Shown here piece after piece: positions 1,398 through 55,072 of a stretch of DNA of 64,000 nucleotides. The notes below the pieces were generated by a model. That model worked only from the letters and a program-made list of their open reading frames with translations, did not search any database and had not been told where the DNA came from. The position numbers and the translations under genes were made by a program. The DNA is taken from positions 2,941 through 66,940 of the forward strand of contig JAUSPN010000101.1 of NCBI GenBank assembly GCA_030656555.1, given 5' to 3'. Numbering within the stretch: position 1 is the stretch's first letter; every line of letters begins with the position of its first letter. Source of the DNA: Candidatus Desulfaltia sp. GTDB taxonomy: Bacteria > Desulfobacterota > Desulfobacteria > Desulfobacterales > ETH-SRB1.

Positions 1398-3923
1398 TTA
1401 CTCCCACCAGATTAGAGGCTTAATAAGCTTATAATCCAAATCCCTGGTATTTATTTTTGTCCCATCGCTAAATTCCACTTCATCTTTTCGGACAGCTTTT
1501 ATCCATTTACCGGTCAGATTTGATAATGTTTCGGCAATATCAATACTCGGGTAGAGCTTAGTCAAATCTACATTTACCTTATTATTCTCATAATCAATTT
1601 CCAATACCTTGAGCATTTTCTCGTCTTTCATAAAGACATATTCCTGATATGGTGCTGAGTTTGGTCTTGTGAACAAATCGCCGTCCTCGTATTTGCAATT
1701 CGCCAGTGACTCCTCGTATTGCTCAAGCTCGTAATATTTGAAAAACCCGCCACCTTGCCAATTTATATCTTTCGATAAGTGAGGCCTTCTTTCTATATCC
1801 GGAAGTGACATATTTCTATCACCAAACAAAACCCACTTCATGCGCCCCTTAACTCCTAATTTTTTACCATCCTCTGTCTCATACATTTCATTAAAATGAT
1901 TTCCCATTTCGACCCCAATCCATCTCCTGTTTAATTTATGGGCAACCGCCGTGGTAGTGCCAATTCCCAAAAAGTAATCCAAGACAATGTCTCTTTGTTC
2001 AGAAGAAGATTGTATTATACGCCGCAGTAGGTTTTCTGGTTTTTGAGATGATGTAAAACTAAAGCTCTCGCTAACTCTCATTTCCGACTGCGTGAACGAA
2101 AAAATATCATTCCAAATATCACCAACTGGAAATATTTTTTCATTTATAGTAACTGAATTTAATCCAAATTTATTGTTGGTCCACTTTTCGATTTTAAATT
2201 CAAAGTCGGTTATTTTTTTTGGGGATGTTATTCTCGGAAAAGCAATTAAATCGAGCCAACCTAACCCAAGTTCAGTAGTGTTTCTGTTTGGCTTCCATAG
2301 TTTTCTAAATAAATATTTATCATTATGGCAATAAAAGATCGTTTGATGTTTAAGTTGAAAATTGTCGCCAAAACTTTTATAACTGAATAAATCTGCTTCG
2401 ACATCTTTTGTCGCGTTCGTATCAAAAATAATCTCGTCAATCTGAGAAAACTTACTCTTAATAAGCTCCTTACCAAAAATATTGGCGTTATCGTCTAAAT
2501 GGAGCCAAAAACTACCATCTTTCCTTAAAAAATTTATTCCAGAATTTATTCTGTCTCTCATTAAACTCAACCAACTTGAATCTTGGAATTTATCTACATA
2601 AGGAAAATCCTTTCCCGTATTAAATGGCGGATCAATATAAATCGTCTGCACTTTTTCTTTAAACTTCGGCAGAATCGTATTTAAAGCCTGATAGTTTTCG
2701 CTTTTAATCAGCCAGCCGTCTAACTGATTGTCCAGATCGTCAAACAGCGCCAAAATTTCAAGTTCTAAATCCTTAAAATATTTGGTGTCAATCGGCAGAT
2801 GCTCATATTTTTTAGCTAAATGCGTTCCTGTTAAATCAGTTTCAAGAACATCATTTACTTTAAAACTTGCATCTACAATCCCGAGTTCCAGCCATTCTTT
2901 GATTTGCTCTTTTATGCCTCGGGCTTTAAGTGTTTTTTCAACTAGCGAGATTGCTTCGTCGTCGCGGAGTTTATCCGCCGAATTGGCGGGCTCCTCGCAA
3001 TGACAGGCGGAAATAATTCTGTCCAGCGTAATCACATAATTGCTGTTTCTCACAAATTTCGGTTTGTTCCATATCTTTACCAGCTCATCTTCAAACTGAC
3101 TGATAAAATCAATAACCTTAAAAGCAATATTTTTTAAAATTTGCAGTTGATCCACTCTTTCCGCCGACCATTCTTTGGCCCCATCCCAAAAATATTGGTA
3201 GCTCCAAAGCTTAAACTGCTCTTTCAAAAATGCTCTGGCGTTTTTATTAATAAAAAAATCTACTTCAGACTGCTTGCCGAAAACACGAAAAGCTTTTTCT
3301 AGTTCCTCCTCTTTTATCGCAACGCCTTTCTTCTTTAGTGCTGTTAATATCTCATCTGTTTTTGTCTTTCGTCCTCTTTCAGAATATGCCACATCAAAAG
3401 CAATTGTCCCATCTTCTCTGACCTTTTTTAATTCAAAAACAAGAGACCTCTTTTCGTTTGCCTTTTTGTTTTCAATGCTTTTTGCGTCAAAATAAAATTT
3501 CAATCCCCCTGTTTCCCCCTTTGATAAAGGGGGAGTAAGGGGGATTTCTACCGGCATACTGCGGAAAATCCTGTCGGTTTTGACATAGTAGAGCATCTGC
3601 GTTTTCCAAAAAAGAATGACATCTTTTTCATCTGTATAAACCTTTTCGTAAATATTGTTATGAAAAGGAGTGGAGTTAAAATAAATAGATCCGCTTTCAG
3701 TAAAATAGCGGCTGAAAAAGGAATATAGCTTGTCAAAAAGCTCTTCCCTGAATTTGGGATATTTTTCCAGCGCGTTATCAATATCATCTTTAAGCAGTTT
3801 TTCTATTTGCGAATAATAACTGGACTTTATCCGCATTAAATTGATAAAACCGCCTTCGCCATCAATTTTTGCGCCAATAAAAACATCTTGAAGCACTTTA
3901 TAAAATTTTTGTTCTTTAGTCAT
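1398..3923 (-). CDS. N6/N4 DNA methyltransferase, Type III Mod-like, with a long N-terminal region
   Basis: Motif IV in IYIDPPFNTGKDF; AdoMet motif I in VLDYFLGIGTTTAVAHKLNRRWIGVEMG; 841 aa. Confidence 0.8.
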   Translation of the reverse strand: MTKEQKFYKVLQDVFIGAKIDGEGGFINLMRIKSSYYSQIEKLLKDDIDNALEKYPKFREELFDKLYSFFSRYFTESGSIYFNSTPFHNNIYEKVYTDEKDVILFWKTQMLYYVKTDRIFRSMPVEIPLTPPLSKGETGGLKFYFDAKSIENKKANEKRSLVFELKKVREDGTIAFDVAYSERGRKTKTDEILTALKKKGVAIKEEELEKAFRVFGKQSEVDFFINKNARAFLKEQFKLWSYQYFWDGAKEWSAERVDQLQILKNIAFKVIDFISQFEDELVKIWNKPKFVRNSNYVITLDRIISACHCEEPANSADKLRDDEAISLVEKTLKARGIKEQIKEWLELGIVDASFKVNDVLETDLTGTHLAKKYEHLPIDTKYFKDLELEILALFDDLDNQLDGWLIKSENYQALNTILPKFKEKVQTIYIDPPFNTGKDFPYVDKFQDSSWLSLMRDRINSGINFLRKDGSFWLHLDDNANIFGKELIKSKFSQIDEIIFDTNATKDVEADLFSYKSFGDNFQLKHQTIFYCHNDKYLFRKLWKPNRNTTELGLGWLDLIAFPRITSPKKITDFEFKIEKWTNNKFGLNSVTINEKIFPVGDIWNDIFSFTQSEMRVSESFSFTSSQKPENLLRRIIQSSSEQRDIVLDYFLGIGTTTAVAHKLNRRWIGVEMGNHFNEMYETEDGKKLGVKGRMKWVLFGDRNMSLPDIERRPHLSKDINWQGGGFFKYYELEQYEESLANCKYEDGDLFTRPNSAPYQEYVFMKDEKMLKVLEIDYENNKVNVDLTKLYPSIDIAETLSNLTGKWIKAVRKDEVEFSDGTKINTRDLDYKLIKPLIWWE
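3502..3546. repeat. Small palindromic element inserted in frame inside the methyltransferase CDS
   Basis: aatccccctgtttccccctttgataaagggggagtaagggggatt is a nested perfect palindrome (tccccctttgataaaggggga inside atccccct/agggggat). It encodes EIPLTPPLSKGETGGLK. Confidence 0.6.
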
Positions 3924-43572: not shown

Positions 43573-43601
43573 AGTTGAAGCCTTTGTTAATATTTTTAAT
43601 T

Positions 43602-44714
43602 ATGAAAATAAAACGTAAAAAAACACGTCAAATCATGGTCGGAAAAGTAAAGGTCGGAGGAATGGCTCCAGTTGCTGTTCAGTCCATGACTAATACCTTT
43701 ACGCAGGATGTCACAGCCACGGTTTTACAAATAAAACGTTTGGAAAAAGCCGGGTGTGAGATTGTCCGGGTGGCTGTTCCGGATAAGGAGGCAGCCGAGG
43801 CAATTTCTGCAATAAAGGATAAAATATCGATTCCTCTTATAGCAGATATCCATTTTGACTACCGCCTGGCAATTGCCTCGGCTATGGCCGGAGCTGATGG
43901 CTTGAGGTTAAATCCAGGCAATATAGGAGGGGCCAAAAAAATAAAGGCAGTTGTTGACTGCGCAAAAGATTTTAATATTCCAATCAGGATAGGAGTTAAT
44001 TCCGGCTCTATTGAAAAAGATATTTTGAAAAAATATAAAGGCGTTACTGTTGAGGGTATGGTTGAAAGCGCCGTCCGTAATATAGAATTATTAACATCAT
44101 ATGGCTTTTATGATATAAAATTATCTATAAAAGCATCGGATGTGCTCCGCAGTGTTGAGGCTTACAGGCTGCTTTCATCAAAAACCGATTTCCCTCTTCA
44201 TGTGGGTATAACAGAGGCCGGTCCTCTTTATCCGGGAATAGTTAAATCATCACTCGGCATAGGGATGCTTCTCGCAGAAGGGATAGGTGATACGATCCGT
44301 GTTTCTTTGACCAGAGATCCTGTCGAAGAGGTTCGTGTGGGCTATGAAATCCTGAAGGCTCTTGATATTCGCCGGCATGGCCCTGATATAATATCATGCC
44401 CGACCTGTGGTCGGTGCAATATTGATCTGTTTAATATTGTAGAACAGGTTGAAAGCGCCCTTGTGTCAAATCCTATGCCGGTTAAGATAGCCATAATGGG
44501 ATGCATTGTAAACGGCCCGGGAGAAGCAAGGGAAGCGGATATCGGAATTGCAGGCGCTGACGGCGCTGGGATACTGTTTAAAAAAGGAAAGGTGATAAAA
44601 AAGTTTCCTCAGGAAAAACTCGTTGATGTTCTACTGAAAGAACTTGAGCAGATGGCAGGAAAAACCAACTATTTTCACCACGCAGCACACAGAGACCACG
44701 GAGAAAATCGGTGA
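43602..44714 (+). CDS. ispG: 4-hydroxy-3-methylbut-2-enyl diphosphate synthase IspG
   Basis: KVGGMAPVAVQSMTNT...RVAVPD...ISCPTCGRC. ATG at 43602 preferred. The last ~15 codons (HHAAHRDHGENR) read into a CACAGAG-word repeat arm. Confidence 0.93.
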   Translation: MKIKRKKTRQIMVGKVKVGGMAPVAVQSMTNTFTQDVTATVLQIKRLEKAGCEIVRVAVPDKEAAEAISAIKDKISIPLIADIHFDYRLAIASAMAGADGLRLNPGNIGGAKKIKAVVDCAKDFNIPIRIGVNSGSIEKDILKKYKGVTVEGMVESAVRNIELLTSYGFYDIKLSIKASDVLRSVEAYRLLSSKTDFPLHVGITEAGPLYPGIVKSSLGIGMLLAEGIGDTIRVSLTRDPVEEVRVGYEILKALDIRRHGPDIISCPTCGRCNIDLFNIVEQVESALVSNPMPVKIAIMGCIVNGPGEAREADIGIAGADGAGILFKKGKVIKKFPQEKLVDVLLKELEQMAGKTNYFHHAAHRDHGENR

Positions 44715-44741
44715 AGTCTGGGGTGAATGAAAGGAGCATTT

Positions 44742-45297
44742 ATGAGTAAAAATGGAGTTGTTCCGGTTGATCAGATTGAAAGCATTATCTTTCTGATACG
44801 CGCTCAAAAGGTCATGTTAAGCCCTCACCTGGCGGAACATTGAACCGCGCGTTCTGGTTCAGGCAGTAAAGCGAAATATCGATAGGTTTCCAGTAGACTT
44901 TATGTTCCAGTTATCAGATGATGAGTTTGCTAACTTGAAATCACAAATTGTGACTTCAAGTTGGGGCGGCCCTCGCAGAGCAAAACCATACGCTTTTACA
45001 GAACAAGGGGTTGCAATGCTTTCCAGTGTTCTGAAAAGCAAGCGTGCGGTTCAGGTTAATATTGAGATCATGCGTGCCTTCGTGCAACTCCGCGAAATGC
45101 TGGCTTCTAACGTGGAGCTTGCCGGTAAGCTGAAACAAATGGAAAAGAAATATGATAAACAGTTTAAGATCGTCTTTGAAGCTATTCGCCAGCTCATGAC
45201 GCCGCTTGCAAAACCACGCAAGAAGATTGGCTTTATAGTAAAGGAAAAGCAAGCTGCCTATGGCAAAATGACAAAGGGAAGTAGAAAAAAGAAATGA
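44742..45297 (+). pseudogene. ORF6N-domain (KilA-N-like DNA-binding) gene disrupted by a frameshift
   Basis: Frame A gives [33 protein letters not shown], stopping at 44841. Frame B, open from 44821, gives ..[66 protein letters not shown]. Together they rebuild a typical ORF6N protein if a small out-of-frame deletion lies near 44835-44841. Confidence 0.65.
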
Positions 45298-45518
45298 TAC
45301 CGAAAAAGACAACATTCAATAAAAATAATATCATTAAGGGTCAAAGGCAGACCTTACCCCTTTTTTATTCACCAGATAAAAGCGGCATCAAAGTGGCCAA
45401 ATACATGACCGAACTCCCGAAACGCGAACTACTGGAGCAGAAGTTTCACAAAGCGGTTGAATTAGCGCAAAAACGGCCGGAGGCAAAACCTGCATGGTGC
45501 AATACAGAACACAAATGA
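45294..45518 (+). CDS. Small hypothetical protein, start overlapping the ORF6N stop (ATGA)
   Basis: 74-aa track ORF with no domain I can name. Confidence 0.3.
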
Positions 45519-45633
45519 TGTCAGCGGGATAAAGTGAATCGGAGGATGGTATACATATTATTGCCTTTTTTCTTCGGGAAATAAGTGTACTGTACCTGGA
45601 ATTACAAAAACTAAAATATACACCCAAGGAAAA

Positions 45634-46794
45634 ATGAAAATGAAAAACATTGAGTTAAAACTGAAAGAATTTGAGTTTTCTGAAAAGAGTGAAAAACATC
45701 TTGATTGGAGCATTGAAAAATTCTCGTTAGGAGAATTTAATATAATATTAAGTGATAATGCTCAAGGCAAAACTAGAATGTTTAACATATTGAGATTTCT
45801 AAAGGATATTCACACAGTTGGACGGAAATTCAATAATCCTAATTACAAAGCTAAGGCTACTCTTTGGTTTGAATCAGGTGAAGATAAGATATTTTATGAT
45901 TTAGCTTTTGCCGGAGAGCCAAAAGGCGATGGGCTTGTTTTCAATGAAATTGTAAAAAGAAATGAAATTGTCCTGTTTGACAGATCAAAAAAGATGCTAA
46001 TTGATGAAACTAACAATGAACAGGTTGGTAAATTTTTTCTGCCAAGCAATGCGCCGGTGGCCTTAGCAGTGAAAGATAAAGAATATATAACTATAAATTT
46101 GATACAAGATTTCTTTTCTCGAATGCTCTTCTTAGAAGCAAACCGTTTTGCACCCGATAAATTATCAATTGATATGGCTGCCATGACTTTAGACACGAAG
46201 GGGCAAAATATCGGCTGTGTTTTGAATAATTGGAAGAAAAAGAAACCGTTATTATACAATGAAGTTGTTGAAGTTTTTAGAGATTGCTTCCCTTTTATAG
46301 AAGATATTTCTATCGAAAAAAAAGCATTTGTACCTGGAATACCCGATTCTCCGATGATGTACATAAAAGAAAAAGATATAGATAGAAAAATTATTCAAAC
46401 TGCATGGAGTGACGGTATGTTAAGGGCTTTGGGTCATTTTATCGTAGTTAGCACTCAATTCCAAAGCGAAACTGATGCAGTAATTAGACCAAGTTTCATT
46501 GGGGTTGATGAAGTTGAAAACGGGCTTGATTTTAATGTATTAGCTAAAGTTATAGAATACTATGAATCATATAGTAGTTTAATTCAAATTGTAATAGCGA
46601 CTCATTCACCTTTGGTTTGCAATATGGTTGGAGCAGATAACTGGTTGATAATGAAAAGGAAAGGTGTAAAAGTTAAGGTCTTTTCTCCTTCCAATGTTGA
46701 GAATTTAGAAACTGAGAGGCGGAAGATTAAAAAAGACAACTGGGAATTTTATCGAAGGCATATTGCTAAATCGAAACTATATAGGATTAAGTAA
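45634..46794 (+). CDS. ABC/SMC-like AAA ATPase (AAA_15/21-type) with an atypical Walker A
   Basis: ILSDNAQGKT (Walker A with Ser in place of the first Gly), WSDGMLRAL (signature-like), SFIGVDEVENGLD (Walker B/D-loop), VIATHSP (H-loop). Confidence 0.7.
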   Translation: MKMKNIELKLKEFEFSEKSEKHLDWSIEKFSLGEFNIILSDNAQGKTRMFNILRFLKDIHTVGRKFNNPNYKAKATLWFESGEDKIFYDLAFAGEPKGDGLVFNEIVKRNEIVLFDRSKKMLIDETNNEQVGKFFLPSNAPVALAVKDKEYITINLIQDFFSRMLFLEANRFAPDKLSIDMAAMTLDTKGQNIGCVLNNWKKKKPLLYNEVVEVFRDCFPFIEDISIEKKAFVPGIPDSPMMYIKEKDIDRKIIQTAWSDGMLRALGHFIVVSTQFQSETDAVIRPSFIGVDEVENGLDFNVLAKVIEYYESYSSLIQIVIATHSPLVCNMVGADNWLIMKRKGVKVKVFSPSNVENLETERRKIKKDNWEFYRRHIAKSKLYRIK

Positions 46795-47456
46795 TGAAGG
46801 CAGTCATATACTATGAAGGCCCTTCCGAGAGAAAAATGATTAATCATCTTCTATATAAATCCTCTCAAATCATTATTCGTACGGAAGATTATAAAGAGTT
46901 TTTAGACGCACCAATAGACCAGAATTGCATCCTGTTTTATGATTGTAAAGGAGATGGAAATGTCTTTCCGAGTATTGCTAAAACTCCTTATTACTATGAA
47001 AATGATGAGCAAATAATAATTATAAGGGATTTAGAAACTACAGATTGTTTCACTCTGCTAAAAGACGAGTTGAACGATTATTGTCCAGAATTACCAGAGG
47101 CCCGTACAAAGCCTATTTTTGCCAAATATACATTAGAACACGTATATCTTGCCGATTTGGATATCTTTAAACAAGTATTTCGTTTGACGTATAGGAAAAA
47201 AACAGGGAAAGAGATTCCTGACAACGAAAGATTTGAGAAATTAATCGGCAATTTAGACCCTATAAAACCTGACTTAAAGGGGATATTTAGGGCTTATGGG
47301 ATAGCATTTCATAAGTCAGCAATAGCACATGAATTTTTTGCAAGGTTCGACTTCCACAATTCGAACCATCCTTATTTCATCAGGCTCGTTAAGTCATTAC
47401 ATAAGCTATTGCATGAACCGGAAAATGGGGGCGGCCTTGACATGGAACAAAGTTAA
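46794..47456 (+). CDS. TOPRIM-like partner protein (DUF4276/RloB/DUF4435-like)
   Basis: 1-nt overlap (TAATG) with the ATPase. N-terminus is MKAVIYYEGPSERKMINHLL, with an acidic IIIIRDLETTD block and a C-terminal AIAHEFFARF...YFIRLVKSL. The family assignment is from memory of these families. Confidence 0.45.
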   Translation: MKAVIYYEGPSERKMINHLLYKSSQIIIRTEDYKEFLDAPIDQNCILFYDCKGDGNVFPSIAKTPYYYENDEQIIIIRDLETTDCFTLLKDELNDYCPELPEARTKPIFAKYTLEHVYLADLDIFKQVFRLTYRKKTGKEIPDNERFEKLIGNLDPIKPDLKGIFRAYGIAFHKSAIAHEFFARFDFHNSNHPYFIRLVKSLHKLLHEPENGGGLDMEQS

Positions 47457-47583
47457 GTACTTGGCCTACCAATCAATCCAGCGGACGTGGTAAAGGGTGC
47501 TGCTGATCTTTTTGTTGGTCCATGCAACTTGCAACAGTGTTCTTCATTAGAGTCTATGACCACTTAGAATCCAGGAGTATTTC

Positions 47584-47793
47584 ATGGCAAAGACCGATCT
47601 TACAGACGAAGAAAAGAAAACAATAATTGAGACGCTGAATAACAATGTTGAACCGCCTTCGGAGCTAATGACAAAACTCTTTCCGGGACTGGCGGAAAAA
47701 TTCGATGTGGCGAAACTGGACAGGGCTAAGGTCGTCACCCTTGAATATGTGGGGAAAAGGAATCGAAGGGGAAATCAGAGGACATATTATTGA
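47584..47793 (+). pseudogene. Orphan fragment resembling the N-terminus of a Mod methyltransferase
   Basis: TDEEKKTIIETLNNNVEPPSELMTKLFP...LEYVGKR parallels the N-terminus of the next gene (TESEKQKIIEMIKASKPIPVIYKNKLF...LVYKGKTRKEDI) at protein level only. It stops soon after. Confidence 0.35.
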
Positions 47794-47885
47794 AACAATC
47801 AAGCAATTGATGCAGCCGTCGAAAAAACCGAGAAAGAGAATAAGTTAGAAAATTAGAGTAACAGTATGATACCAAGGGCAATATT

Positions 47886-50174
47886 TTGAAACTTACCGAA
47901 AGTGAAAAGCAGAAAATCATTGAAATGATCAAGGCAAGCAAGCCGATCCCTGTAATTTACAAAAACAAGCTTTTTGATTCAGATGATTCGGAATTCATCG
48001 AGGCTACCAAAGACTACAGGCTGGTTTATAAGGGAAAAACACGGAAAGAGGATATTATTGCAGGCACGCCTGTCGCACCTTTTCAGAAAGTCCGTTCCTT
48101 TAACAGCGACAATTCCTTTGATGAAGACTGGCGGAATATGCTCATTTTCGGCGACAATCTTCTTGCCCTTAAAACCATCTATGATGATCAGCGAAACGAA
48201 AACAGATATAAGACAAAAAACCGCATAAAGCTCATCTACATCGATCCCCCCTTTGCCACCAAACAGGATTTCATGAAAGACCGGGAAAAGGCGTACCGTG
48301 ACAAGATTATCGGGGCGCAGTTTATTGAATTTTTGCGCAAACGCTTGATTCTCATGCGGGAGATTCTGGCCGACAACGGCTCTATTTATGTGCACCTGGA
48401 CTGGAAGAAAGGGCATTATATCAAGGCCATAATGGATGAGGTATTTGGAGAGCATAATTTTCAAAACGAAGTTATTTGGCATTATAGGCTGTGGACAGCT
48501 GGAGATAAAAAATTTCAAAATATGCATGACACAGTTTTCTTTTATACAAAATCAGAAAATTCTTTTTTTAATCTTCCCTATGATCCTTATGGTGATTGGA
48601 TAAAAAAGGATTATCAATATTTTGATGAAGAAAGTGGTAAACGATGGAGATGGCATACTGTAAAGGGAAAACGATATAAAGTATTTCTTGAAGATGAAAA
48701 TAGGGGTGTAAAGTCTAATGATGTTTGGGAAATTCCGTATATAGTATCTACTGCGATAGAAAGAAAAATAACTGGAAATTATCCAACCCAAAAACCGGAA
48801 CAATTATTAGAGAGAATAATATCTGCCTCATCTAACGAAAATGACATCATCCTCGACGCCTTCGCCGGTTCCGGCACCACCCTTGCCGTTGCAGAAAAAC
48901 TTGGCCGCCGCTGGATCGGAATGGACTGCGGGAAACTTGCTATTTACACCATCCAGAAAAGAATGCTCAATCTCACCACCCGAATCGGTTCCGCGAAAAA
49001 TGATGACCGCCGGGATTATGAACGGGTGGATGATTTCGAAGATCATTCCAAAAATTCCCGCGGTCTGTTTTTTGTCTATGAGAAAGCCCGCAGGGGTGAT
49101 CTGGCAATTACCGACACATTCCTCAAAAACTTTGCCGGTTTTATTTCAGAAAATCTATCCGGCAATAAAGAACAATCCTTTTCGCTGGCTTGTCCTAAAG
49201 ACAAGTTCAAAGTCCACAAGCTGAAAGTAACGGAAAACGAAGACGGAAAAGCGGGGGAAAAGATTGTAACGGTGGGCAAAGTCAGATTTCGAATTTCCTT
49301 TATCCTGTCAAAAGAAAAGACCGAAAAGGAAAAACCACTGAAGGCAAAAGAATTCACGCTCTACAACGCCGGCATCTACGATAATAAACAGATCCTTAAT
49401 ATGGATTGGGAGTCTTATAAGCCTTTTGTCACCCAGCTTTTTGGCCTTCGCCCCGAATCTCACAAGATACACGGCTTCATGGCAGACGGCTATATCGGCA
49501 TTCATTCAGCTTATATATGGGACTATCCGAATCAGAAAAATTTAATCCTTGATACAGGATATGTCAAAACACTGCACACGGTTTTAGGTGGCAGGGCCGG
49601 CAATAAATTCTATGTAATTGCCCCTGTTATCTCGATGGGATTTATGGAAGATGAAATTCCAATCGACGGAACCACCTACGTTTTTCTGAAAGTTCCTCTA
49701 TCCATATTGATGGCGCTCATTGAAAAGGGCGAGCCGGGAAGTCTGAAACAGCCGGTTAGTGAAAATGATGTCAACGAAGTAATCGACGCGGTTGGATTTG
49801 ACTTTATCTCCCAGCCCGTGGTTGCTGCAAGGTACTGCCGGAAAGCGCCGGAAAACCGGAATCTGTTTAACCAGGATCATAAGGATTTTGTCATTGAAAT
49901 CACTCAATTCAAGTCCAATACTCTTGTCTACGATCCGGAGGATTTTGAAAATTTTGAAACCCTTTCAATGGTATTGATCGATACCAATTACAACGGCGGG
50001 TATTTCAATCTGGATAATGCCTTCTGGGCAGATAAAATACTTGATGATGCTAAAACCAAAGCCGTTATAAGAATCCCGCAAAATGAATTTGCCGGCAAAA
50101 AGATGCTGGTAATATTTATGGATAAGTATGGAAATGAACTCAAAGTTTTGAAATCAAAAGGGGATTTCAAATGA
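47886..50174 (+). CDS. mod: Type III restriction-modification methyltransferase (Mod)
   Basis: IKLIYIDPPFATKQDF (motif IV) and ILDAFAGSGTTLAVAEKLGRRWIGMD (motif I). TTG start is uncertain. 4-nt overlap with res. Confidence 0.85.
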   Translation: MKLTESEKQKIIEMIKASKPIPVIYKNKLFDSDDSEFIEATKDYRLVYKGKTRKEDIIAGTPVAPFQKVRSFNSDNSFDEDWRNMLIFGDNLLALKTIYDDQRNENRYKTKNRIKLIYIDPPFATKQDFMKDREKAYRDKIIGAQFIEFLRKRLILMREILADNGSIYVHLDWKKGHYIKAIMDEVFGEHNFQNEVIWHYRLWTAGDKKFQNMHDTVFFYTKSENSFFNLPYDPYGDWIKKDYQYFDEESGKRWRWHTVKGKRYKVFLEDENRGVKSNDVWEIPYIVSTAIERKITGNYPTQKPEQLLERIISASSNENDIILDAFAGSGTTLAVAEKLGRRWIGMDCGKLAIYTIQKRMLNLTTRIGSAKNDDRRDYERVDDFEDHSKNSRGLFFVYEKARRGDLAITDTFLKNFAGFISENLSGNKEQSFSLACPKDKFKVHKLKVTENEDGKAGEKIVTVGKVRFRISFILSKEKTEKEKPLKAKEFTLYNAGIYDNKQILNMDWESYKPFVTQLFGLRPESHKIHGFMADGYIGIHSAYIWDYPNQKNLILDTGYVKTLHTVLGGRAGNKFYVIAPVISMGFMEDEIPIDGTTYVFLKVPLSILMALIEKGEPGSLKQPVSENDVNEVIDAVGFDFISQPVVAARYCRKAPENRNLFNQDHKDFVIEITQFKSNTLVYDPEDFENFETLSMVLIDTNYNGGYFNLDNAFWADKILDDAKTKAVIRIPQNEFAGKKMLVIFMDKYGNELKVLKSKGDFK

Positions 50175-52774
50175 GCCTTAAATATAAAAATGATGATTTC
50201 TTGCTCCGAACAGACGACTATTCTGAAAAAGTGCTATCTGTAGTCAATAAGTATGATGCCTTTTTAGACGCACTGACTACCGCTGATTTTGGGCATATTC
50301 GTGAAGCGACAAGAATGGCCATTCAATTTTTTGTCTCCGATAAATATAAAAATACAGAGCAGGTTGCAGTCCATACTTATAACCAATCCCCAAAACTTAA
50401 GATCCGCTATAATAGATTGAATGATTATTTGGGGCATATTCAGATCAGGGATAAGAAATCGTTCAGCATCGACTTGGCCACAGGCACTGGGAAAAGCTGG
50501 GTTATATACGCTGTGTCTCAGATTATGCTGGCGGAGGGTCTGGTGGACAAGGTGCTGGTGTTATGTCCGTCTTTGACTATCGAAGAAGAGCTAAAAATTA
50601 AATTTGAAGTATTCAGCGGAAATAACGTATTGACACAGATTCTGACTGAACTGGATGCGGCTTATCCCTCTCCTGCCATCAAGAGCGCCAATGTCCCAAT
50701 CTTGAACGGTGATATTTGTATCGAGAACATCCACGCCGCCTATCAGCGAACAGGCTCTTCCATTCCTGACAGCTTTAAAGGCAAAGGGCAGCGAACCCTG
50801 GTCATCAGTGATGAAGCCCATCACATATACAGTAAGGCAGACGCTAATGTGAAGAAGTGGTACGATTTCTTGATAAACCCGGATTACGATTTTCATTATC
50901 TGCTTGGACTAACAGGCACACCTTATATCGGTGATGAATATTTTCACGACGTGATTTACCGTTACAGCCTGAAACAGGCAATGGAAGACGGGATCATCAA
51001 AAAAATTGATTATAAGGTCGAAGAGGAGTCGGATAAAGAGAAGGGGTTTGATGAAACATATCAGAATCACGTAGCCATACAGGAAATGTATTCCGGCAAT
51101 TTAAAGCCCATCACTATTATCATAACCGACAGGATCGTTACCTGTATCCAGGTGTGGAACAATCTGGTTAAATATATCTCTGAAAAAGAAAACCTGTCCT
51201 ATGACCAGGCGGCAAAAAAAGTCATCTGGGTGACTTCCGGCCTGCCATCTTCGGCAAATGAAAGAACGGTTGTTGATGGTATTTTAAGCAACGGTGAAAA
51301 AGTGCGGAAAGAAAACCTGACATTGCTGAAATCTGTGGATGAAAAGGAGAATCCCGTAGAATGGATTGTCTCTGTAAGTATGCTTACCGAAGGATGGGAT
51401 GTTAAAAATGTATTTCAGATTGTGCCTCATGAACAACGGGCTTTTAATTCCAAATTGCTTATTTCACAGGTTCTGGGCAGGGGGTTAAGAATACCGAAAG
51501 GGTTGGAACACCCGATCTTTGTAAAAATCAATAATCATGAAAAATGGACGCCAAAGATTGTTAATCTATATAACGAAGTCCTGGAAATAGAAAATAAGAT
51601 CTCATGGTTTTATGATGAATCCAAAAAACGCTATGCCTTCCCGCTTTACAATTTAGAATATGCATCCCTGCAGGACACCATAGAGATCAAGAAAGAGCCT
51701 GCAAAAGAACCGGGAAAGGTGGATTTTTCGCCACAGAGCAGAAAATGGGAAGAAACCAGCCGCTATTCGGAAACAGGTTCTTTTCGTTTCACCGTTGAGA
51801 ATAAGGACATATTGACCATCGAGCAGGCCGCGCGCCAGATCAAACTTTTTTTAAAGGAAAAAGACGCCTCTATTTCAAAGCAGTGGTCGATTAAGAAAAT
51901 CAAGGATTTTATTGTTAAGAACCTTGAGAAAGATGATTACGATTCGTCATTTCTTACAAATGAAAATTTATCAAAAGCAAAACAGGCATTTGGGCCGATG
52001 TTTAGGGAATTAGACAAGAAAGCGCCCAGGATGAAAATGCGGCCTGATTCGCTCTATCCGTTAATCTGGGAGGAGATGTCGTTACAGTCTTTCAATGAGA
52101 GTGCAATAAAGGAGAACAGTTACGTTTATTATACAAAAGATTCTGTCAATTCTCTTTCAGCCGAGCAGAAAATTTTATTTGGCGACTTTTTAAAAGATAA
52201 AGAAAACTATGATCAGGTTAGAGAAAAGGTTGTCAGGTATGGTGGCAACGAAGACGAAATCAAATTTTTACAGGAAAATCTCTTTGAAAGAACGGATGAT
52301 GAGTTCAAAACGCCGTTAAATATGCTTTTTGTCTCCTATGAGCCGGAACATCGATTTGCCAACTCATTATTTAATAATATTAATTTGTTTGACTCGATTT
52401 TCAAATCACCGGATAAGGGCTTTTATTGGTTCCCCTATTCTTATAAACCGGACGAGAAAGGAAGCACTCACGTTAAGAGGGAAAATTTTAATCCTGATTT
52501 TTTCATCAAACTGAAAGATAAAAATGAAATACTGGTGGTAGAGATAAAGGCGGACAGCGACACCAATCAAAAAAACAAAGCAAAATATCGGGACGGAAAG
52601 GCGCATTTTGATTCGTTGAACAAGAAATTGAAGGAAAATGGCATTGATTGGAAATACCATTTCTACTTTTTATCGCCGGAAGACAGAACAGAGTTTTTTC
52701 AGGCTGTTCGTGATGGTCGGTATAAAAACTGGAAATCCGGATTGATGCAGGAATTAAGTAGTAACGGAAAGTAA
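50171..52774 (+). CDS. res: Type III restriction enzyme Res subunit (SF2 helicase plus C-terminal PD-(D/E)xK)
   Basis: DLATGTGKSWVI (motif I), VISDEAHHIY (DEAH), GLTGTPY, MLTEGWDVKNV, QVLGRGLR, and C-terminal NPDFFIK...ILVVEIKADSD. Confidence 0.85.
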   Translation: MSLKYKNDDFLLRTDDYSEKVLSVVNKYDAFLDALTTADFGHIREATRMAIQFFVSDKYKNTEQVAVHTYNQSPKLKIRYNRLNDYLGHIQIRDKKSFSIDLATGTGKSWVIYAVSQIMLAEGLVDKVLVLCPSLTIEEELKIKFEVFSGNNVLTQILTELDAAYPSPAIKSANVPILNGDICIENIHAAYQRTGSSIPDSFKGKGQRTLVISDEAHHIYSKADANVKKWYDFLINPDYDFHYLLGLTGTPYIGDEYFHDVIYRYSLKQAMEDGIIKKIDYKVEEESDKEKGFDETYQNHVAIQEMYSGNLKPITIIITDRIVTCIQVWNNLVKYISEKENLSYDQAAKKVIWVTSGLPSSANERTVVDGILSNGEKVRKENLTLLKSVDEKENPVEWIVSVSMLTEGWDVKNVFQIVPHEQRAFNSKLLISQVLGRGLRIPKGLEHPIFVKINNHEKWTPKIVNLYNEVLEIENKISWFYDESKKRYAFPLYNLEYASLQDTIEIKKEPAKEPGKVDFSPQSRKWEETSRYSETGSFRFTVENKDILTIEQAARQIKLFLKEKDASISKQWSIKKIKDFIVKNLEKDDYDSSFLTNENLSKAKQAFGPMFRELDKKAPRMKMRPDSLYPLIWEEMSLQSFNESAIKENSYVYYTKDSVNSLSAEQKILFGDFLKDKENYDQVREKVVRYGGNEDEIKFLQENLFERTDDEFKTPLNMLFVSYEPEHRFANSLFNNINLFDSIFKSPDKGFYWFPYSYKPDEKGSTHVKRENFNPDFFIKLKDKNEILVVEIKADSDTNQKNKAKYRDGKAHFDSLNKKLKENGIDWKYHFYFLSPEDRTEFFQAVRDGRYKNWKSGLMQELSSNGK

Positions 52775-52891
52775 GTGAAATCGGAAGCAGGCTCACATTT
52801 ATTCCTGACTTTGCTTTTTTGAAGAACAACCGACATTGAGAAGTTCGAAGCTGTTAGGGACGTGCCTTGGGGACATCCATTGGATTATAAC

Positions 52892-53020
52892 GGGAGGTTA
52901 GGGGACGTAGCTCAGTTTATAAGTTTATATCGTCGGGAAGGAAACCCATGGGAACAGCCATTGAAAAACAAGGGGGAATATGCAGTACATTAGTTTATAA
53001 GTTGATGTGGTAATTGAACT
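52892..53020 (+). repeat. Direct repeat copy 1 (~128 bp) upstream of the Panacea/toxin cassette
   Basis: gggaggttaggggacgtagctcagtttataagtttatatcgtcgggaaggaaacccatgggaacagccattgaaaaacaagggggaatatgcagtacattagtttataagttgatgtggtaattgaact aligns over its full length with 54811-54938, with scattered substitutions. Confidence 0.85.
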
Positions 53021-53202
53021 GAAGAACGTAGTTGACCCCAGTTAAATAAAAGCAAACATGATATTATAGCTGTTTAATTTAAATATGAATATTTAAGATG
53101 CGACCTCAATGAACTCTTTATAAGAAAACAGTCTTCGCCGTTAAAAGAAGATTCCGAGAAAGAGTAATATGATGAGAAAATTTAAATATATGGTTGTTTA
53201 TA

Positions 53203-54000
53203 ATGAAATCCAGTAAAATTGACATCCTCATACAATACGCAATTTTAATTGCCGGTCAGGAAGATGAGTATCTTGACCGCCAGCTTGGTCCAATCCACTT
53301 GATAAAATACGTCTATCTGGCGGATTTGGCATATGCTGAGCGTAATTGCGGTGAGACTTTTACAGGAATTGCCTGGCAGTTTTATAAGTTCGGGCCTTGG
53401 TCTGAAGCAGTTAACGAGCGGATTGAACCTGCTCTTGCTGCAATTGGAGCAAACAAAAAAACATTTCCCAGCAACTTTGACGACAAAAATGATTGGTTTA
53501 GGTGGCAGATTACAGATGATCGTTTGCTGGATGATATAGAACGAAAGCTACCTTTTCCTGTTACATCGCGCCTTAAAAGAGATATTCATAAGTTTGGTCA
53601 AGACACTCCTTCACTGTTAAGCTATGTCTATCTGACCTCCCCGATGCTTTTGGCCGCCCCGAATGAGTATCTCGATTTCTCGCACTTGAATCAAAAAAGC
53701 GAAGATATAAAAAAGCCTTTGCCGTTAAAGAAAGAGAGCTTGACTGCCAGGGAAAAGAAAAAATTCAAAGAAGGCATGCAAAAAATACGTGAAAAGAACT
53801 TCGAAAGGCAGTCCGCTGATCGCAGGAAAACACAACTCGTAAATCCTGTTCCGCATCCTAAATATGACGATGTCTATTATGACGGGCTGAAGTGGCTTGA
53901 CAGCCTTGCCGGTCCCCCGCTACCTGAAGGGGAAAAAGAAGCCATTTTCTCCGATTCTGTCTGGAAGTCAAGTAGCAGAAGGGGTGAAGATGTTTCCTGA
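53203..54000 (+). CDS. Panacea (DUF4065/SocA-like) domain antitoxin candidate
   Basis: LGPIHLIKYVYLADLAYAERNCGETFTGIAWQFYKFGPWSEAV matches the DUF4065 pattern (KLxYLAD...W..GPW). ATG at 53203 preferred over the track TTG at 53194. Its stop overlaps the next ATG (ATGTTTCCTGA). Confidence 0.6.
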   Translation: MKSSKIDILIQYAILIAGQEDEYLDRQLGPIHLIKYVYLADLAYAERNCGETFTGIAWQFYKFGPWSEAVNERIEPALAAIGANKKTFPSNFDDKNDWFRWQITDDRLLDDIERKLPFPVTSRLKRDIHKFGQDTPSLLSYVYLTSPMLLAAPNEYLDFSHLNQKSEDIKKPLPLKKESLTAREKKKFKEGMQKIREKNFERQSADRRKTQLVNPVPHPKYDDVYYDGLKWLDSLAGPPLPEGEKEAIFSDSVWKSSSRRGEDVS

Positions 54001-54696
54001 TGATTCGGTCCAGTCCATTATTAGCCCTTCTTTATGGTGGGAAGAAACCAAAACAAAAAACTTCGAGAGGGGTTGCCTTGTTTATGCCTTTATACCACAT
54101 GTTGACCAAGTGCCTTATACTATAAGACTTGTCGGAAGATCACAGGCAGAACGGCATGACAGCGCAAAGCTGGATATTGCTCCATTGAGGATAAAGACAG
54201 GCGCAAAAAAGAAGATTTGCCTGTAGCTGCAATGGCGCTTCATGATGATGAGCTGTGGGCAGCTTATAGGGCAAAGAAAAGACCGTGTCTTGTATTGGGA
54301 AGTGCTGTCCCAGCTGTAGACAATAAATTAAGATGGGGTATGCCAAAGAAATCGACGGCACCAACGGTGATTGTTGCACCCTATTATGGTTCTGACCATG
54401 ATGGCACGCGTGCCGGATATAATCCTGAGCTTGTTGAGCGAATACGACACGCAGAATATCCGCAATTTTTTTGGGATAAACTTCCTATTTTCGGGCCGAA
54501 AGAGTCGATATTGAGACTTGATCACATTCAACCCGTTGGAACACATTACAATTCGTATGAATTGGCCAAATATAAGCTGAGCAAAAATGCCATGGAGCTC
54601 ATGGATGATTTACTCCAATGGCTCATTTGGGGTGGCGTCCCTGCTGACAGCCTCATTTTAGATTACAGAAAACAAATTGAATCTACCTTTGGCTAA
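53990..54696 (+). CDS. MazF/PemK-fold-like toxin candidate in two frames, joined by a -1 shift at A_AAA_AAG (54205-54211) or else disrupted
   Basis: Frame 1 reads MFPDDS...ERGCLVYAFIPHVD...APLRIKTGAKKKICL*, stopping at 54226. The -1 frame continues ..EDLPVAAMALHDDELWAAYRAKKRPCLVLG...TVIVAPYYG...ILRLDHIQPV. The joined product would be about 235 aa. Confidence 0.5.
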
Positions 54697-54810
54697 CATA
54701 TATCATGTAGTTGGCGTAATTACGTAGAGGGCAATGGAGGTATAGCATGATTGTATCCGTGGGACTTACGGGACATTCTCAACTTTTAAACTTGTAAGGC
54801 AGATGAAACA

Positions 54811-54938
54811 GGGGATTAGAGGGCGTAGCTCAGTTTATAAGTTTATATCGTCAGGAAGGAACCCCACGGGAACAGCCATTGAAAAATAAGGTGGAATATA
54901 CGGGACATTAGTCTATAAGTTGGCGGGGTAATTGAACT
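54811..54938 (+). repeat. Direct repeat copy 2 (~128 bp) downstream of the cassette, upstream of proS
   Basis: ggggattagagggcgtagctcagtttataagtttatatcgtcaggaaggaaccccacgggaacagccattgaaaaataaggtggaatatacgggacattagtctataagttggcggggtaattgaact. Confidence 0.85.
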
Positions 54939-55017
54939 ATTATGATATCTGGTTTGCATGCCACGCCAATCAAGAATAGATGCCCGGCCGCCTCGCCTGT
55001 GCTCTCTGTGGTAAATG

Positions 55018-55047
55018 TTTACAACTGTAGATAATTTGTTGTATAAT
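55018..55047 (+). promoter_or_regulatory. Candidate sigma70-type promoter for proS
   Basis: TTTACA, 18 nt, then TATAAT (55042-55047), about 25 nt before the ATG. Confidence 0.35.
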
Positions 55048-55072
55048 ATTAAAGTATTATAAAAGGATCAAT

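Follow-up and report, generated by a model that had tools for sequence, protein, structure and literature searches.

The stretch of DNA analysed here (the window: 64,000 nt of Candidatus Desulfaltia sp., contig JAUSPN010000101.1, positions 2,941 to 66,940) contains an accessory island of about 10 kb (44715-55072) in the gap between ispG (gcpE, 43575-44714) and proS. A repeat search of the window detected two direct copies of a 132-nt sequence near the proS end of this island. Copies A and B are 87% identical, are spaced 1918 nt apart and bracket two genes, which encode a PanA-like antitoxin and a partner (Table 1). A preliminary description had regarded this repeat as real, as a feature of the DNA and as linked to mobile DNA, and had seen it enclose an antitoxin/toxin pair. 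These points stand, though the partner gene is frameshifted. The three roles proposed for the repeats in the same description (boundary or recombination sites of a mobile toxin-antitoxin (TA) module, operator or iteron array of the antitoxin, duplicated structured RNA) are not supported by our data, and overall the interpretation can be upheld in its smaller part only. Comparison with related sequences indicates instead that both repeats are very probably composite remnants of the ends of TIRYT transposons, i.e. elements with a tyrosine transposase gene between terminal inverted repeats (TIRs), in a hot spot of a defence island.

Each copy contains two related boxes, as previously noted. The 19-mer GTAGCTCAGTTTATAAGTT of box 1 is found in the window at 52907 and 54825 only (0.00 occurrences expected from shuffles), with a relative containing 3 mismatches at 52985. 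The second box, ACATTAGTYTATAAGTTG, is confined to 52987 and 54905. In a pairwise alignment the likeness of the copies stops abruptly on the right at ...GGTAATTGAAC. All four SGGGACRT words of the window are located at the repeat locus, and all four on the + strand. The additional GGGACRT words mentioned in the preliminary description exist at the locus, but their positions have to be slightly corrected (GGGACGT 52857-52863, GGGACAT 52870-52876, GGGACTT 54761-54767, GGGACAT 54770-54776), and the window sequence contains no word of this type at 54781, where one had been placed.

Table 1. Features of the repeat locus and of the ispG-proS gap (window positions)
Feature	Position	Strand	Basis and remarks
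AAA_21 ATPase gene	45634-46794		ispG-proS gap
Gene of 220-aa partner of the ATPase	46794-47456		ispG-proS gap
Type III mod	47886-50174		ispG-proS gap
Type III res	50171-52774		ispG-proS gap
Partial/degenerate TIR copies 5' of unit A	52857-52892	+	GGGACGT 52857-52863; GGGGACATCCATTGGATTATAAC (52869-52892), a diverged box copy
Repeat copy A (unit A), core and left-end module	52889-53020	+	repeat search; nhmmer core match 52896-52974, 85.8 bits
Box 1A, right-end TIR of minus-strand sister TIRYT element	52902-52934	-	minus-strand translation ...VPMGFLPDDINL*
Box 2A, left-end TIR and inner left end of plus-strand TIRYT element	52985-53020	+	ACATTAGTTTATAAGTTGAT GTGGTAATTGAAC; 83-97% identity upstream of TIRYT genes
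Module M_a2	53017-53062	+	starts with AACTGAAGAACGT (53017-53029); remainder a 42-nt segment also preceding unrelated cassettes
TA cassette, extent common to other genomes	53120-54703	+	blastn against L170-L176: 53176-54703 88%; from 53120 95% in L176
PanA-like antitoxin gene, 265 aa	53203-54000	+	alternative TTG start 53194; Pfam SocA_Panacea E=1.4e-3, 20 bits against a cut-off of 25.7
Partner (putative toxin) gene	53990-54696	+	235 aa in relatives; frameshift here
Module 5' of unit B	54761-54810	+	GGGACTT, GGGACAT, weak inverted box 54778-54795 (minus strand, 4 mismatches); common to L006
Repeat copy B (unit B)	54807-54938	+	repeat search; nhmmer 54810-54892, 87.5 bits
Box 1B	54820-54852		within unit B
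Box 2B	54902-54938		within unit B
Inner left end and vestigial TIRYT gene	54939-55014	+	ATG 54958; 9 codons MPRQSRIDA 54958-54984, then unrelated sequence to stop
Promoter-like site for proS, TTTACA-18-TATAAT	55018-55047	+	consensus scan 11/12; consensus match only; outside the repeat

Box 2 is the left TIR of a transposon. The sequence following copy B, ATGCCACGCCAATCAAGAATAGATGCC, translates into the first nine residues of a tyrosine transposase, and the same 9-codon remnant is present at the proS loci of L017 and L021 (L numbers designate the contigs used for comparison). At the orthologous proS locus of L001 the remnant extends to 17 codons (MPRQSRIDAPGAFHHII); this contig carries a second remnant of 35 codons, too. 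A junction scan yielded 16 loci, each showing GGGACGTACATTAGTTTATAAGTTGAC(A/G)GGGTA(C/A)TTGAAC...TGGTTTGC directly in front of the ATG of MPRQSRIDAPGALHHIIARG...; farther upstream the sequences of these loci are unrelated. Box 2A with its inner left end resembles the sequence directly 5' of TIRYT genes or their remnants in L037, L040, L041, L045 and L047 (83-97% identity), and 54905-54987 shows 84-90% identity to the 5' ends of TIRYT genes in L036, L040, L041 and L047. Of the 20 positions of ACATTAGTTTATAAGTTGAC, box 2A matches 19 and box 2B 18.

An intact gene for a 334-aa transposase exists in L036, L040 and L047. Its stop codon is directly followed by CAGT-AACTTATAAACTAATGTACGTCCC, the exact reverse complement of the left box. 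In L036, L040 and L091 a box of 24-28 nt lies upstream of the gene and its reverse complement directly after the stop codon or overlapping it. The L036 protein contains HFH and RYIHLNP motifs and matches Pfam Y1_Tnp (E=2.1e-10; 41 bits, cut-off 23). Among the NCBIfam models the REP-associated tyrosine transposase (REP_Tyr_transpos) scored best, with 65 bits, under the equivalog cut-off of 80. The C-terminus gave weak matches to MarR_2 (E=0.003, residues 297-323) and to the DnaA equivalog (E=0.0025, residues 209-333), and a C-terminal extension would agree with the protein length of 334 aa. In the 64-kb window tblastn detected no full TIRYT gene; codons 1-9 alone survive. Furthermore, L042 contains at 2426-3394 a distant TIRYT-like gene (39% identity over 184 aa) with a different C-terminus and without a matching box, indicating that these genomes harbour more than one lineage of tyrosine transposases.

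Box 1 represents the opposite (right) terminus of a sister element. In L091 the complete gene of a sister transposase is present; its 339-aa product (63.5% identity) ends in ...KEHQYSLLDDTNL (…LLDDTNL), whereby the codons GAT ACA AAC TTA TAA lie within the box and are followed by ACTGAAGAACGTCCCC. Read on the minus strand, both cores of the window end in ...GFLPDDINL* and then the box; in box 1A, 52917-52934 comprises the last five codons and the stop (GAC GAT ATA AAC TTA TAA, DDINL*). Box 1 is identical to the 23-nt pattern of the sister right ends, and in metagenome matches the same 23-nt box runs on into several different sequences. Box 1 together with TATATCGTC is thus a right-end TIR which takes in the final five transposase codons and their stop. 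Of the two ends in the unit, one belongs to a minus-strand and the other to a plus-strand element, and for this reason the boxes appear in direct orientation, at a distance of 78 nt. At the end of unit A, AACTGAAGAACGT (53017-53029) agrees fully, in inverted orientation, with the tip-proximal sequence of the sister right end (compare ACTGAAGAACGTCCCC in L091) and forms an inverted repeat with 52905-52917. We regard 53017-53029 as a putative degenerate inverted TIR, by which unit A would be loosely bounded by degenerate inverted ends. The module M_a2 starting here was matched by BLAST in L001 (264-340), L002 (1371-1444), L003, L007, L016, L017 and L019.

Besides full elements, miniature derivatives with inverted TIRs exist. 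With a strict box pattern, inverted (convergent) box pairs were found only about 1.05 kb (full elements), 186 bp and about 384-391 bp apart, and divergent pairs were not found; over all inverted pairs the two shorter distances range from about 186 to 209 bp and from about 384 to 414 bp. The inverted pairs of the strict pattern enclose transposase genes or miniature elements only, never cargo. Miniatures of 233 bp (L038 876-1108, L043 6706-6938) have intact inverted TIRs and keep the first 28 transposase codons. Those of about 455 bp (L130 231-693, L138 2747-3203, L092 3981-4435, L064 10019-10473) have intact inverted TIRs, too, and contain a terminator-like hairpin. The flanks of both classes differ from contig to contig, and the elements look mobile. 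In L036, L092, L130 and L138 TAA adjoins the element at either end (…TAA|GGGAC…GTCCC|(A)TAA…), which hints at a 3-bp target duplication or at a TAA target in these few clean cases; L038, L040 and L043 do not fit.

The element family resembles a known kind of transposon. RAYT-like genes (REP-associated tyrosine transposases; REP, repetitive extragenic palindrome) flanked by long TIRs instead of REPs were named TIRYTs, and the elements TIRtrons, by Di Nocera et al. 2013, who found a GGGGWSAS motif in the majority of the published TIRs as well as TIR copies occurring as singles, dimers and clusters (PMC3733652). According to Quentin et al. 2018, most TIRYTs belong to the TnpA_REP-like subclass 2.1, have DnaA_C/helix-turn-helix (HTH)-like C-termini and lack REPs nearby (PMC6006769). 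The elements described here share the RAYT-like Y1 HUH transposase, the position of the gene between long TIRs without hairpin REPs and the scattering of TIR copies as singles, dimers and clusters. Weak matches hint at the C-terminal HTH-like extension, and the TIR starts with a GGGG(A)(C)-type sequence that agrees with GGGGWSAS at 6-7 of 8 positions. They differ in the TIR family itself, GGGACRT-N5-AGTTTATAAGTT, and in their Desulfobacterales and sediment hosts, neither of which is represented in the published examples (the text of PMC3733652 nowhere contains "Desulf"). Further differences are the stop and last codons located inside the TIR in one subfamily, dimers which join ends of two subfamilies and read as direct repeats, and the two miniature classes (233 bp and about 455 bp). 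In the literature searched two works use the terms TIRYT or TIRtron, and this kind of element is known but barely studied.

Other repeat systems fit less well. Canonical IS200/IS605 elements have a subterminal hairpin at either end, on one strand, and no TIRs, whereas the ends found here are inverted repeats without hairpins. A REP is a 20-40-nt imperfect palindrome forming a hairpin, usually tagged by GTAG and arranged in inverted doublets. REP/REPIN-RAYT systems, reportedly described by Nunvar 2010 and by Bertels and Rainey 2011, are similar in that short intergenic repeats derive from, and are presumably mobilised by, a (semi-)domesticated IS200-like tyrosine transposase. Like these and the BIMEs of E. 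coli, our repeats are mostly located just 3' of genes and form clusters and mosaics. In contrast, our units lack a palindromic hairpin, their boxes are direct, GTAG is present in box 1 only, and each genome has several IS-like transposase copies or remnants instead of a single vertically inherited RAYT. Thus L001, L047 and L048, which are from one metagenome-assembled genome (MAG), contain several copies and remnants. Neisseria NIMEs/dRS3 and the pneumococcal BOX are likewise modular, with alternative 5' and 3' modules joined at short words (here the TIR tip CTTGCGGGACGT), but the modules of our family are traceable to a recognisable group of transposons, namely to their ends and to pieces of their gene.

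The repeat is dispersed over dozens of contexts. A scan for the 19-mer in one genome per species gave 18 loci, 16 of them true copies and nearly all in MAGs of Desulfobacterales/Thermodesulfobacteriota; some loci carry two or three repeat copies. Combined with a gapped-pattern scan, 26 true loci were obtained, mostly from Desulfobacterales MAGs. A metagenome scan for the box returned at least 120 matches. Altogether we count at least 42 distinct full units in Desulfobacterales genomes and sediment metagenomes, and at least 140 distinct contexts of the box-1 right end; of 140 such contexts, one has a full open reading frame (ORF), three have partial long ORFs ended by the contig and the rest are stumps. 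Near-identical units or elements were seen in L002, L005, L038 and L046, contigs binned as Nitrospirota, Bacteroidales and Methanococcoides MAGs, which would reflect either mis-binned Desulfobacterales contigs or recent horizontal spread.

The aligned copies have a 70-80-nt core in common (GGATTAGGGGACGTAGCTCAGTTTATAAGTTTATATCGTCAGGAAGGAAACCCACGGGAACAGCCATTGAAAAATAAG), which is joined to alternative 5' and 3' modules. The 3' module M_a holds box 2, while M_b precedes Fic genes. Box dimers are spaced 78-82 nt, and clusters occur as well. Three readings of the core or unit were tried and dropped: as a diverged left-end copy (local alignment of the post-box parts was no better than shuffles), as coding sequence of the sister transposase (the match was limited to the last ~8 residues) and as a short ORF running through the unit (the plus-strand frames contain stops in some copies and no conserved start). 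A CRISPR-like or CreTA-like reading, suggested by the ATTGAAA tail, was dropped after the boxes had been traced to transposon ends.

Extra GGGAC words within 45 nt upstream of boxes are enriched about sixfold (12 observed, 2.0 expected, 85 family contexts), and partial tandem duplications of the TIR tip were seen in L008, L041, L043, L052, L062, L111 and L145. Such duplications account for the extra GGGACRT words near the window copies. In L008 (1746-1990, = L106) a 22-nt tip, CGGATTAGGGGACGTAGCTCAG, is present in tandem triplicate. The core of this copy is split at CATTGAA|AAAATAAG by an insert of ~115 nt with two GTAG-containing hairpins, CCCCGTAGCTTGCTGCGGGG and CCCTGTAGCTTGCTACAGGG, which look like members of a different, genuine REP/REPIN family. 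In L018 (-) a further diverged direct box, CTTGCGGGACGTCTATTTGTAAATCAGTTG, follows the stop codon of Fic, and then a small ORF, MTHHYSKPIRKKL…, which recurs in L009.

The units lie among accessory genes, encoding HEPN, MNT nucleotidyltransferase, Fic, Schlafen/AlbA_2, AbiEii-like, RhuM-like, UPF0175 and restriction subunits, and also next to proS. Their neighbours are mostly co-oriented (31/34 upstream, 23/31 downstream), and at most of the loci inspected for this the stop codon of the preceding gene is found at -120 to +8 nt of the unit. This arrangement would be expected if the unit had been co-opted at the RNA level as a 3'-UTR (untranslated region) or intercistronic signal, stabilising or punctuating the mRNA as REPs do. 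We consider such a function unlikely, since the unit folds are unstable with energies worse than those of shuffles, aligned units show almost no covariation, no terminator-like site was found within units, and strand-specific HUH transposition would predict the orientation bias just as well. It would, however, be compatible with an origin from transposon ends.

The same data bear on the proposed duplicated structured RNA or tRNA-derived element, for which the likeness of GGGGACGTAGCTCAG to the 5' half of a tRNA (acceptor/D-arm) could be quoted. This resemblance had already been called superficial in the preliminary description, and rightly: ARAGORN predicted three unrelated tRNAs in the window and none at the repeat region, and Rfam gave nothing at the repeats, neither at gathering threshold nor at E<=10. 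Moreover, sister elements read TTCCT, TTCTT or ACATT at the "AGCTC" segment, so that the tRNA-like string is one TIR variant. Compared with dinucleotide shuffles the units folded worse on three of four strands (z +1.2 to +1.5) and indistinguishably on the fourth (+0.3). RNAalifold applied to 14 units (~130 columns) yielded -10.2 kcal/mol (covariation term -0.51) and a single compensatory pair, a result of limited power as the copies are closely related. No inverted arms span the unit, the longest being 14-21 nt at 76-79% complementarity. A structured RNA is therefore extremely unlikely. The preliminary description had named a common dispersed repeat without covariation as the outcome that would speak against its proposals, and the dispersal and near-nil covariation observed here largely correspond to it.

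The TA cassette and the repeats are independent of each other. For PanA, 860 homologues were found, many of them with PF13274 and one named "Panacea domain-containing protein". The partner gene has suffered a 1-nt deletion after 54192, as seen in the alignment with L170 and L175. The independent contig L049, obtained from SRR13727525, is 100% identical across the deletion site and has the same frameshift. In L170-L175 an intact 235-aa partner overlaps PanA by 11 nt, and contigs with 87-97% identical PanA proteins carry an intact partner in quite different neighbourhoods. By comparison with these, the module of the window is an orphan antitoxin gene beside a decaying, putative toxin gene. For the 235-aa partner of this PanA clade (L170 5791-6498 and homologues) no match was found in Pfam, NCBIfam, PADLOC or PDB sequences; it may represent an undescribed family of Panacea-associated putative toxins. 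The seven contigs L170-L176 contain the PanA-partner cassette at 88-95% nucleotide identity, and blastn detected nothing in them matching the repeat regions. As the cassette occurs without the repeats and the repeats occur beside unrelated genes, the one does not depend on the other.

This independence affects two of the earlier proposals. Boxes that are near-palindromic (AGTTTATAAGTT), repeated about 80 bp apart and located upstream of panA could be thought of as operators or iterons for the Panacea antitoxin or for a replication or partition protein. Yet PanA cassettes at 88-95% identity do without them, and boxes are found beside proS, which has its own promoter-like site, as well as beside Fic, HEPN/MNT, AlbA_2 and other genes. 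There are 140-180 nt between the end of unit A and the panA start, and the boxes are demonstrably transposon ends. We attach next to no probability to an operator function.

The other proposal, that the units are attachment or recombination sites at which TA or defence cassettes are moved by an HUH transposase or homologous recombination in an integron-like manner, has more in its favour. Co-oriented arrays of accessory cassettes separated by units occur in L003, L004, L007, L017 and the window, and the spacing within direct box pairs ranges from 289 to 2962 nt. Box 2 with the M_a2 module precedes at least six unrelated cassettes, and the sequence upstream of the conserved proS unit is different in all four related genomes. 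In L015 (2746-2824, -) the core is fused straight to a 5'-truncated RhuM-like ORF, so that its 3' edge represents a rearrangement breakpoint. A related version would see direct TIR dimers as docking sites where TIRYT transposases or inter-unit recombination insert or exchange co-oriented cassettes. If true, this would amount to an integron-like platform run by a single-strand tyrosine transposase and would explain the arrays in the five sequences mentioned as well as the shared "leader" of box 2 and M_a2. However, the PanA cassette is found in seven other contigs without units, and its homology stops short of the brackets, by 58-115 nt on the left and by 58 nt on the right. Throughout its length copy B follows the resident type (97.6% to L021), and copy A likewise the M_a2 type; there is no Campbell-type hybrid, nor any other hybrid pattern in both copies of the kind expected from recombination within the unit. 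Inverted box pairs of the strict pattern never enclose cargo. The TA cassette itself was considered as cargo between the box at 52985 and the weak inverted box at 54778-54795; this was rejected as the latter has 4/18 mismatches and no GTCCC tip, and as the strict pattern revealed no other inverted pair with cargo. Finally, the sites are not attC-like. Co-oriented, often promoter-less TA or defence cassettes split by a 60-140-bp element near the preceding stop do recall integrons and clusters of attC sites lacking an integrase (CALIN). In contrast to attC sites, however, the units have no R''/L''-L'/R' structure, no single-strand hairpin and no GTTRRRY at the unit edge or core, and cassette homology does not stop at the repeats. 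An attachment-site function thus appears quite improbable, and docking sites for exchange are hardly to be expected.

We therefore return to the reading as transposon ends. The repeat units have very probably been assembled from TIRs of TIRYT-type transposons (TIRtrons), which employ RAYT-like Y1 HUH transposases of the IS200 superfamily. The TIRs are ~25-33 bp long and of the form (C)TT(G/A)(C/A)GGGAC(G/A)T-N5-AGTTTATAAGTT. Box 1 with TATATCGTC originates from the right end of a minus-strand element, box 2 with the following ~35 nt from the left end of a plus-strand element. TIRYT enzymes cutting single-stranded DNA via their HUH/Tyr site may have spread the units in trans, possibly guided by the C-terminal HTH domain. 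Spread of this kind would be strand-specific, which would explain the co-orientation of units with neighbouring genes. The ispG-proS gap would then be a hot spot collecting transposon ends and accessory cassettes. Locally the repeats are probably inert, because the 64-kb window contains no transposase gene. At most, RecA could use the 132 bp of homology (87%) between them to eliminate the decaying TA module.

Several points weigh against this reading. The two boxes of the unit are direct, unlike the standard inverted-TIR geometry of miniatures, and the copying of the whole composite unit to more than 40 sites is thereby not accounted for. The putative inverted right end at 53017-53029 is degenerate, and copy B lacks the feature. 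The 45-nt inner core, AGGAAGGAAACCCACGGGAACAGCCATTGAAAAATAAG, resembles neither a left end nor recognisable transposase coding sequence. The agreement of the TIRs with GGGGWSAS is incomplete, GGGGACAT (52869) matching at 7/8 and GGGGACGT (52901) at 6/8 positions, and in many family members the TIR begins with three G only (GGGAC). The units are strongly co-oriented with genes and lie just after stop codons, which could also reflect a selected role at the RNA level. The window covers 64 kb of the genome, and an intact transposase gene may lie elsewhere. We know of no TIRYT enzyme that has been characterised biochemically.

The apparent cassette with iterons is thus a false lead which resolves to debris of transposon ends. 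The identification of the boxes as such ends and of the gene start following copy B went beyond what the reading of a single sequence could show. It points to a large, active-looking TIRYT family in sediments rich in sulfate reducers, comprising full elements, two miniature classes and more than 100 solo ends, and distinguished by the stop codon inside the terminal repeat, frequent tip duplications and strong co-orientation with genes. The box sequences and the L036 and L091 proteins provide substrates for work on TIR-type Y1 transposases, and the box signature allows annotators to spot such debris in defence islands.

The comparison of proS loci gives some indications of the local history. 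Copy B, the transposase stump and the proS promoter region are kept in four related genomes. The region of copy B is 94% identical to L017, 97.6% to L021 and, up to 54987, 94% to L001. The right junction of copy B is the same at the proS locus of all three; L001 has ~100 extra nt after the equivalent of 54987, and homology resumes at 54997. Upstream of the proS-proximal unit the genomes differ: L017 carries HEPN/MNT and AlbA_2 fragments, L001 carries MNT/HEPN and a second stump, and L021 has a res-like gene that is unrelated. Copy B bears the resident-type marker TAGTCTATAAG, whereas copy A bears TAGTTTATAAG and M_a2 like the units before unrelated cassettes. This distribution suggests an ancestral, proS-proximal copy B, while copy A, of the same repeat family, would have arrived separately, with or next to other accessory DNA. 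A true empty single-copy site between res and proS, whose existence had been raised in the preliminary description, was not found in these genomes; L021 has a res-like ORF, a unit and proS in this order, but its res is not orthologous to that of the window. The position of copy B upstream of proS agrees with the earlier description, and the promoter-like site is located between the repeat and the proS start. GC skew was uninformative on the replication strand. Upstream of unit B, 54761-54890 shows 86% identity to L006 (blastn).

The remaining part of the island, between ispG and the repeats, carries the ATPase gene with its partner and the Type III restriction genes listed in Table 1. The C-terminus of the res product shows a weak match to a TnsA-like endonuclease (E=8e-4).

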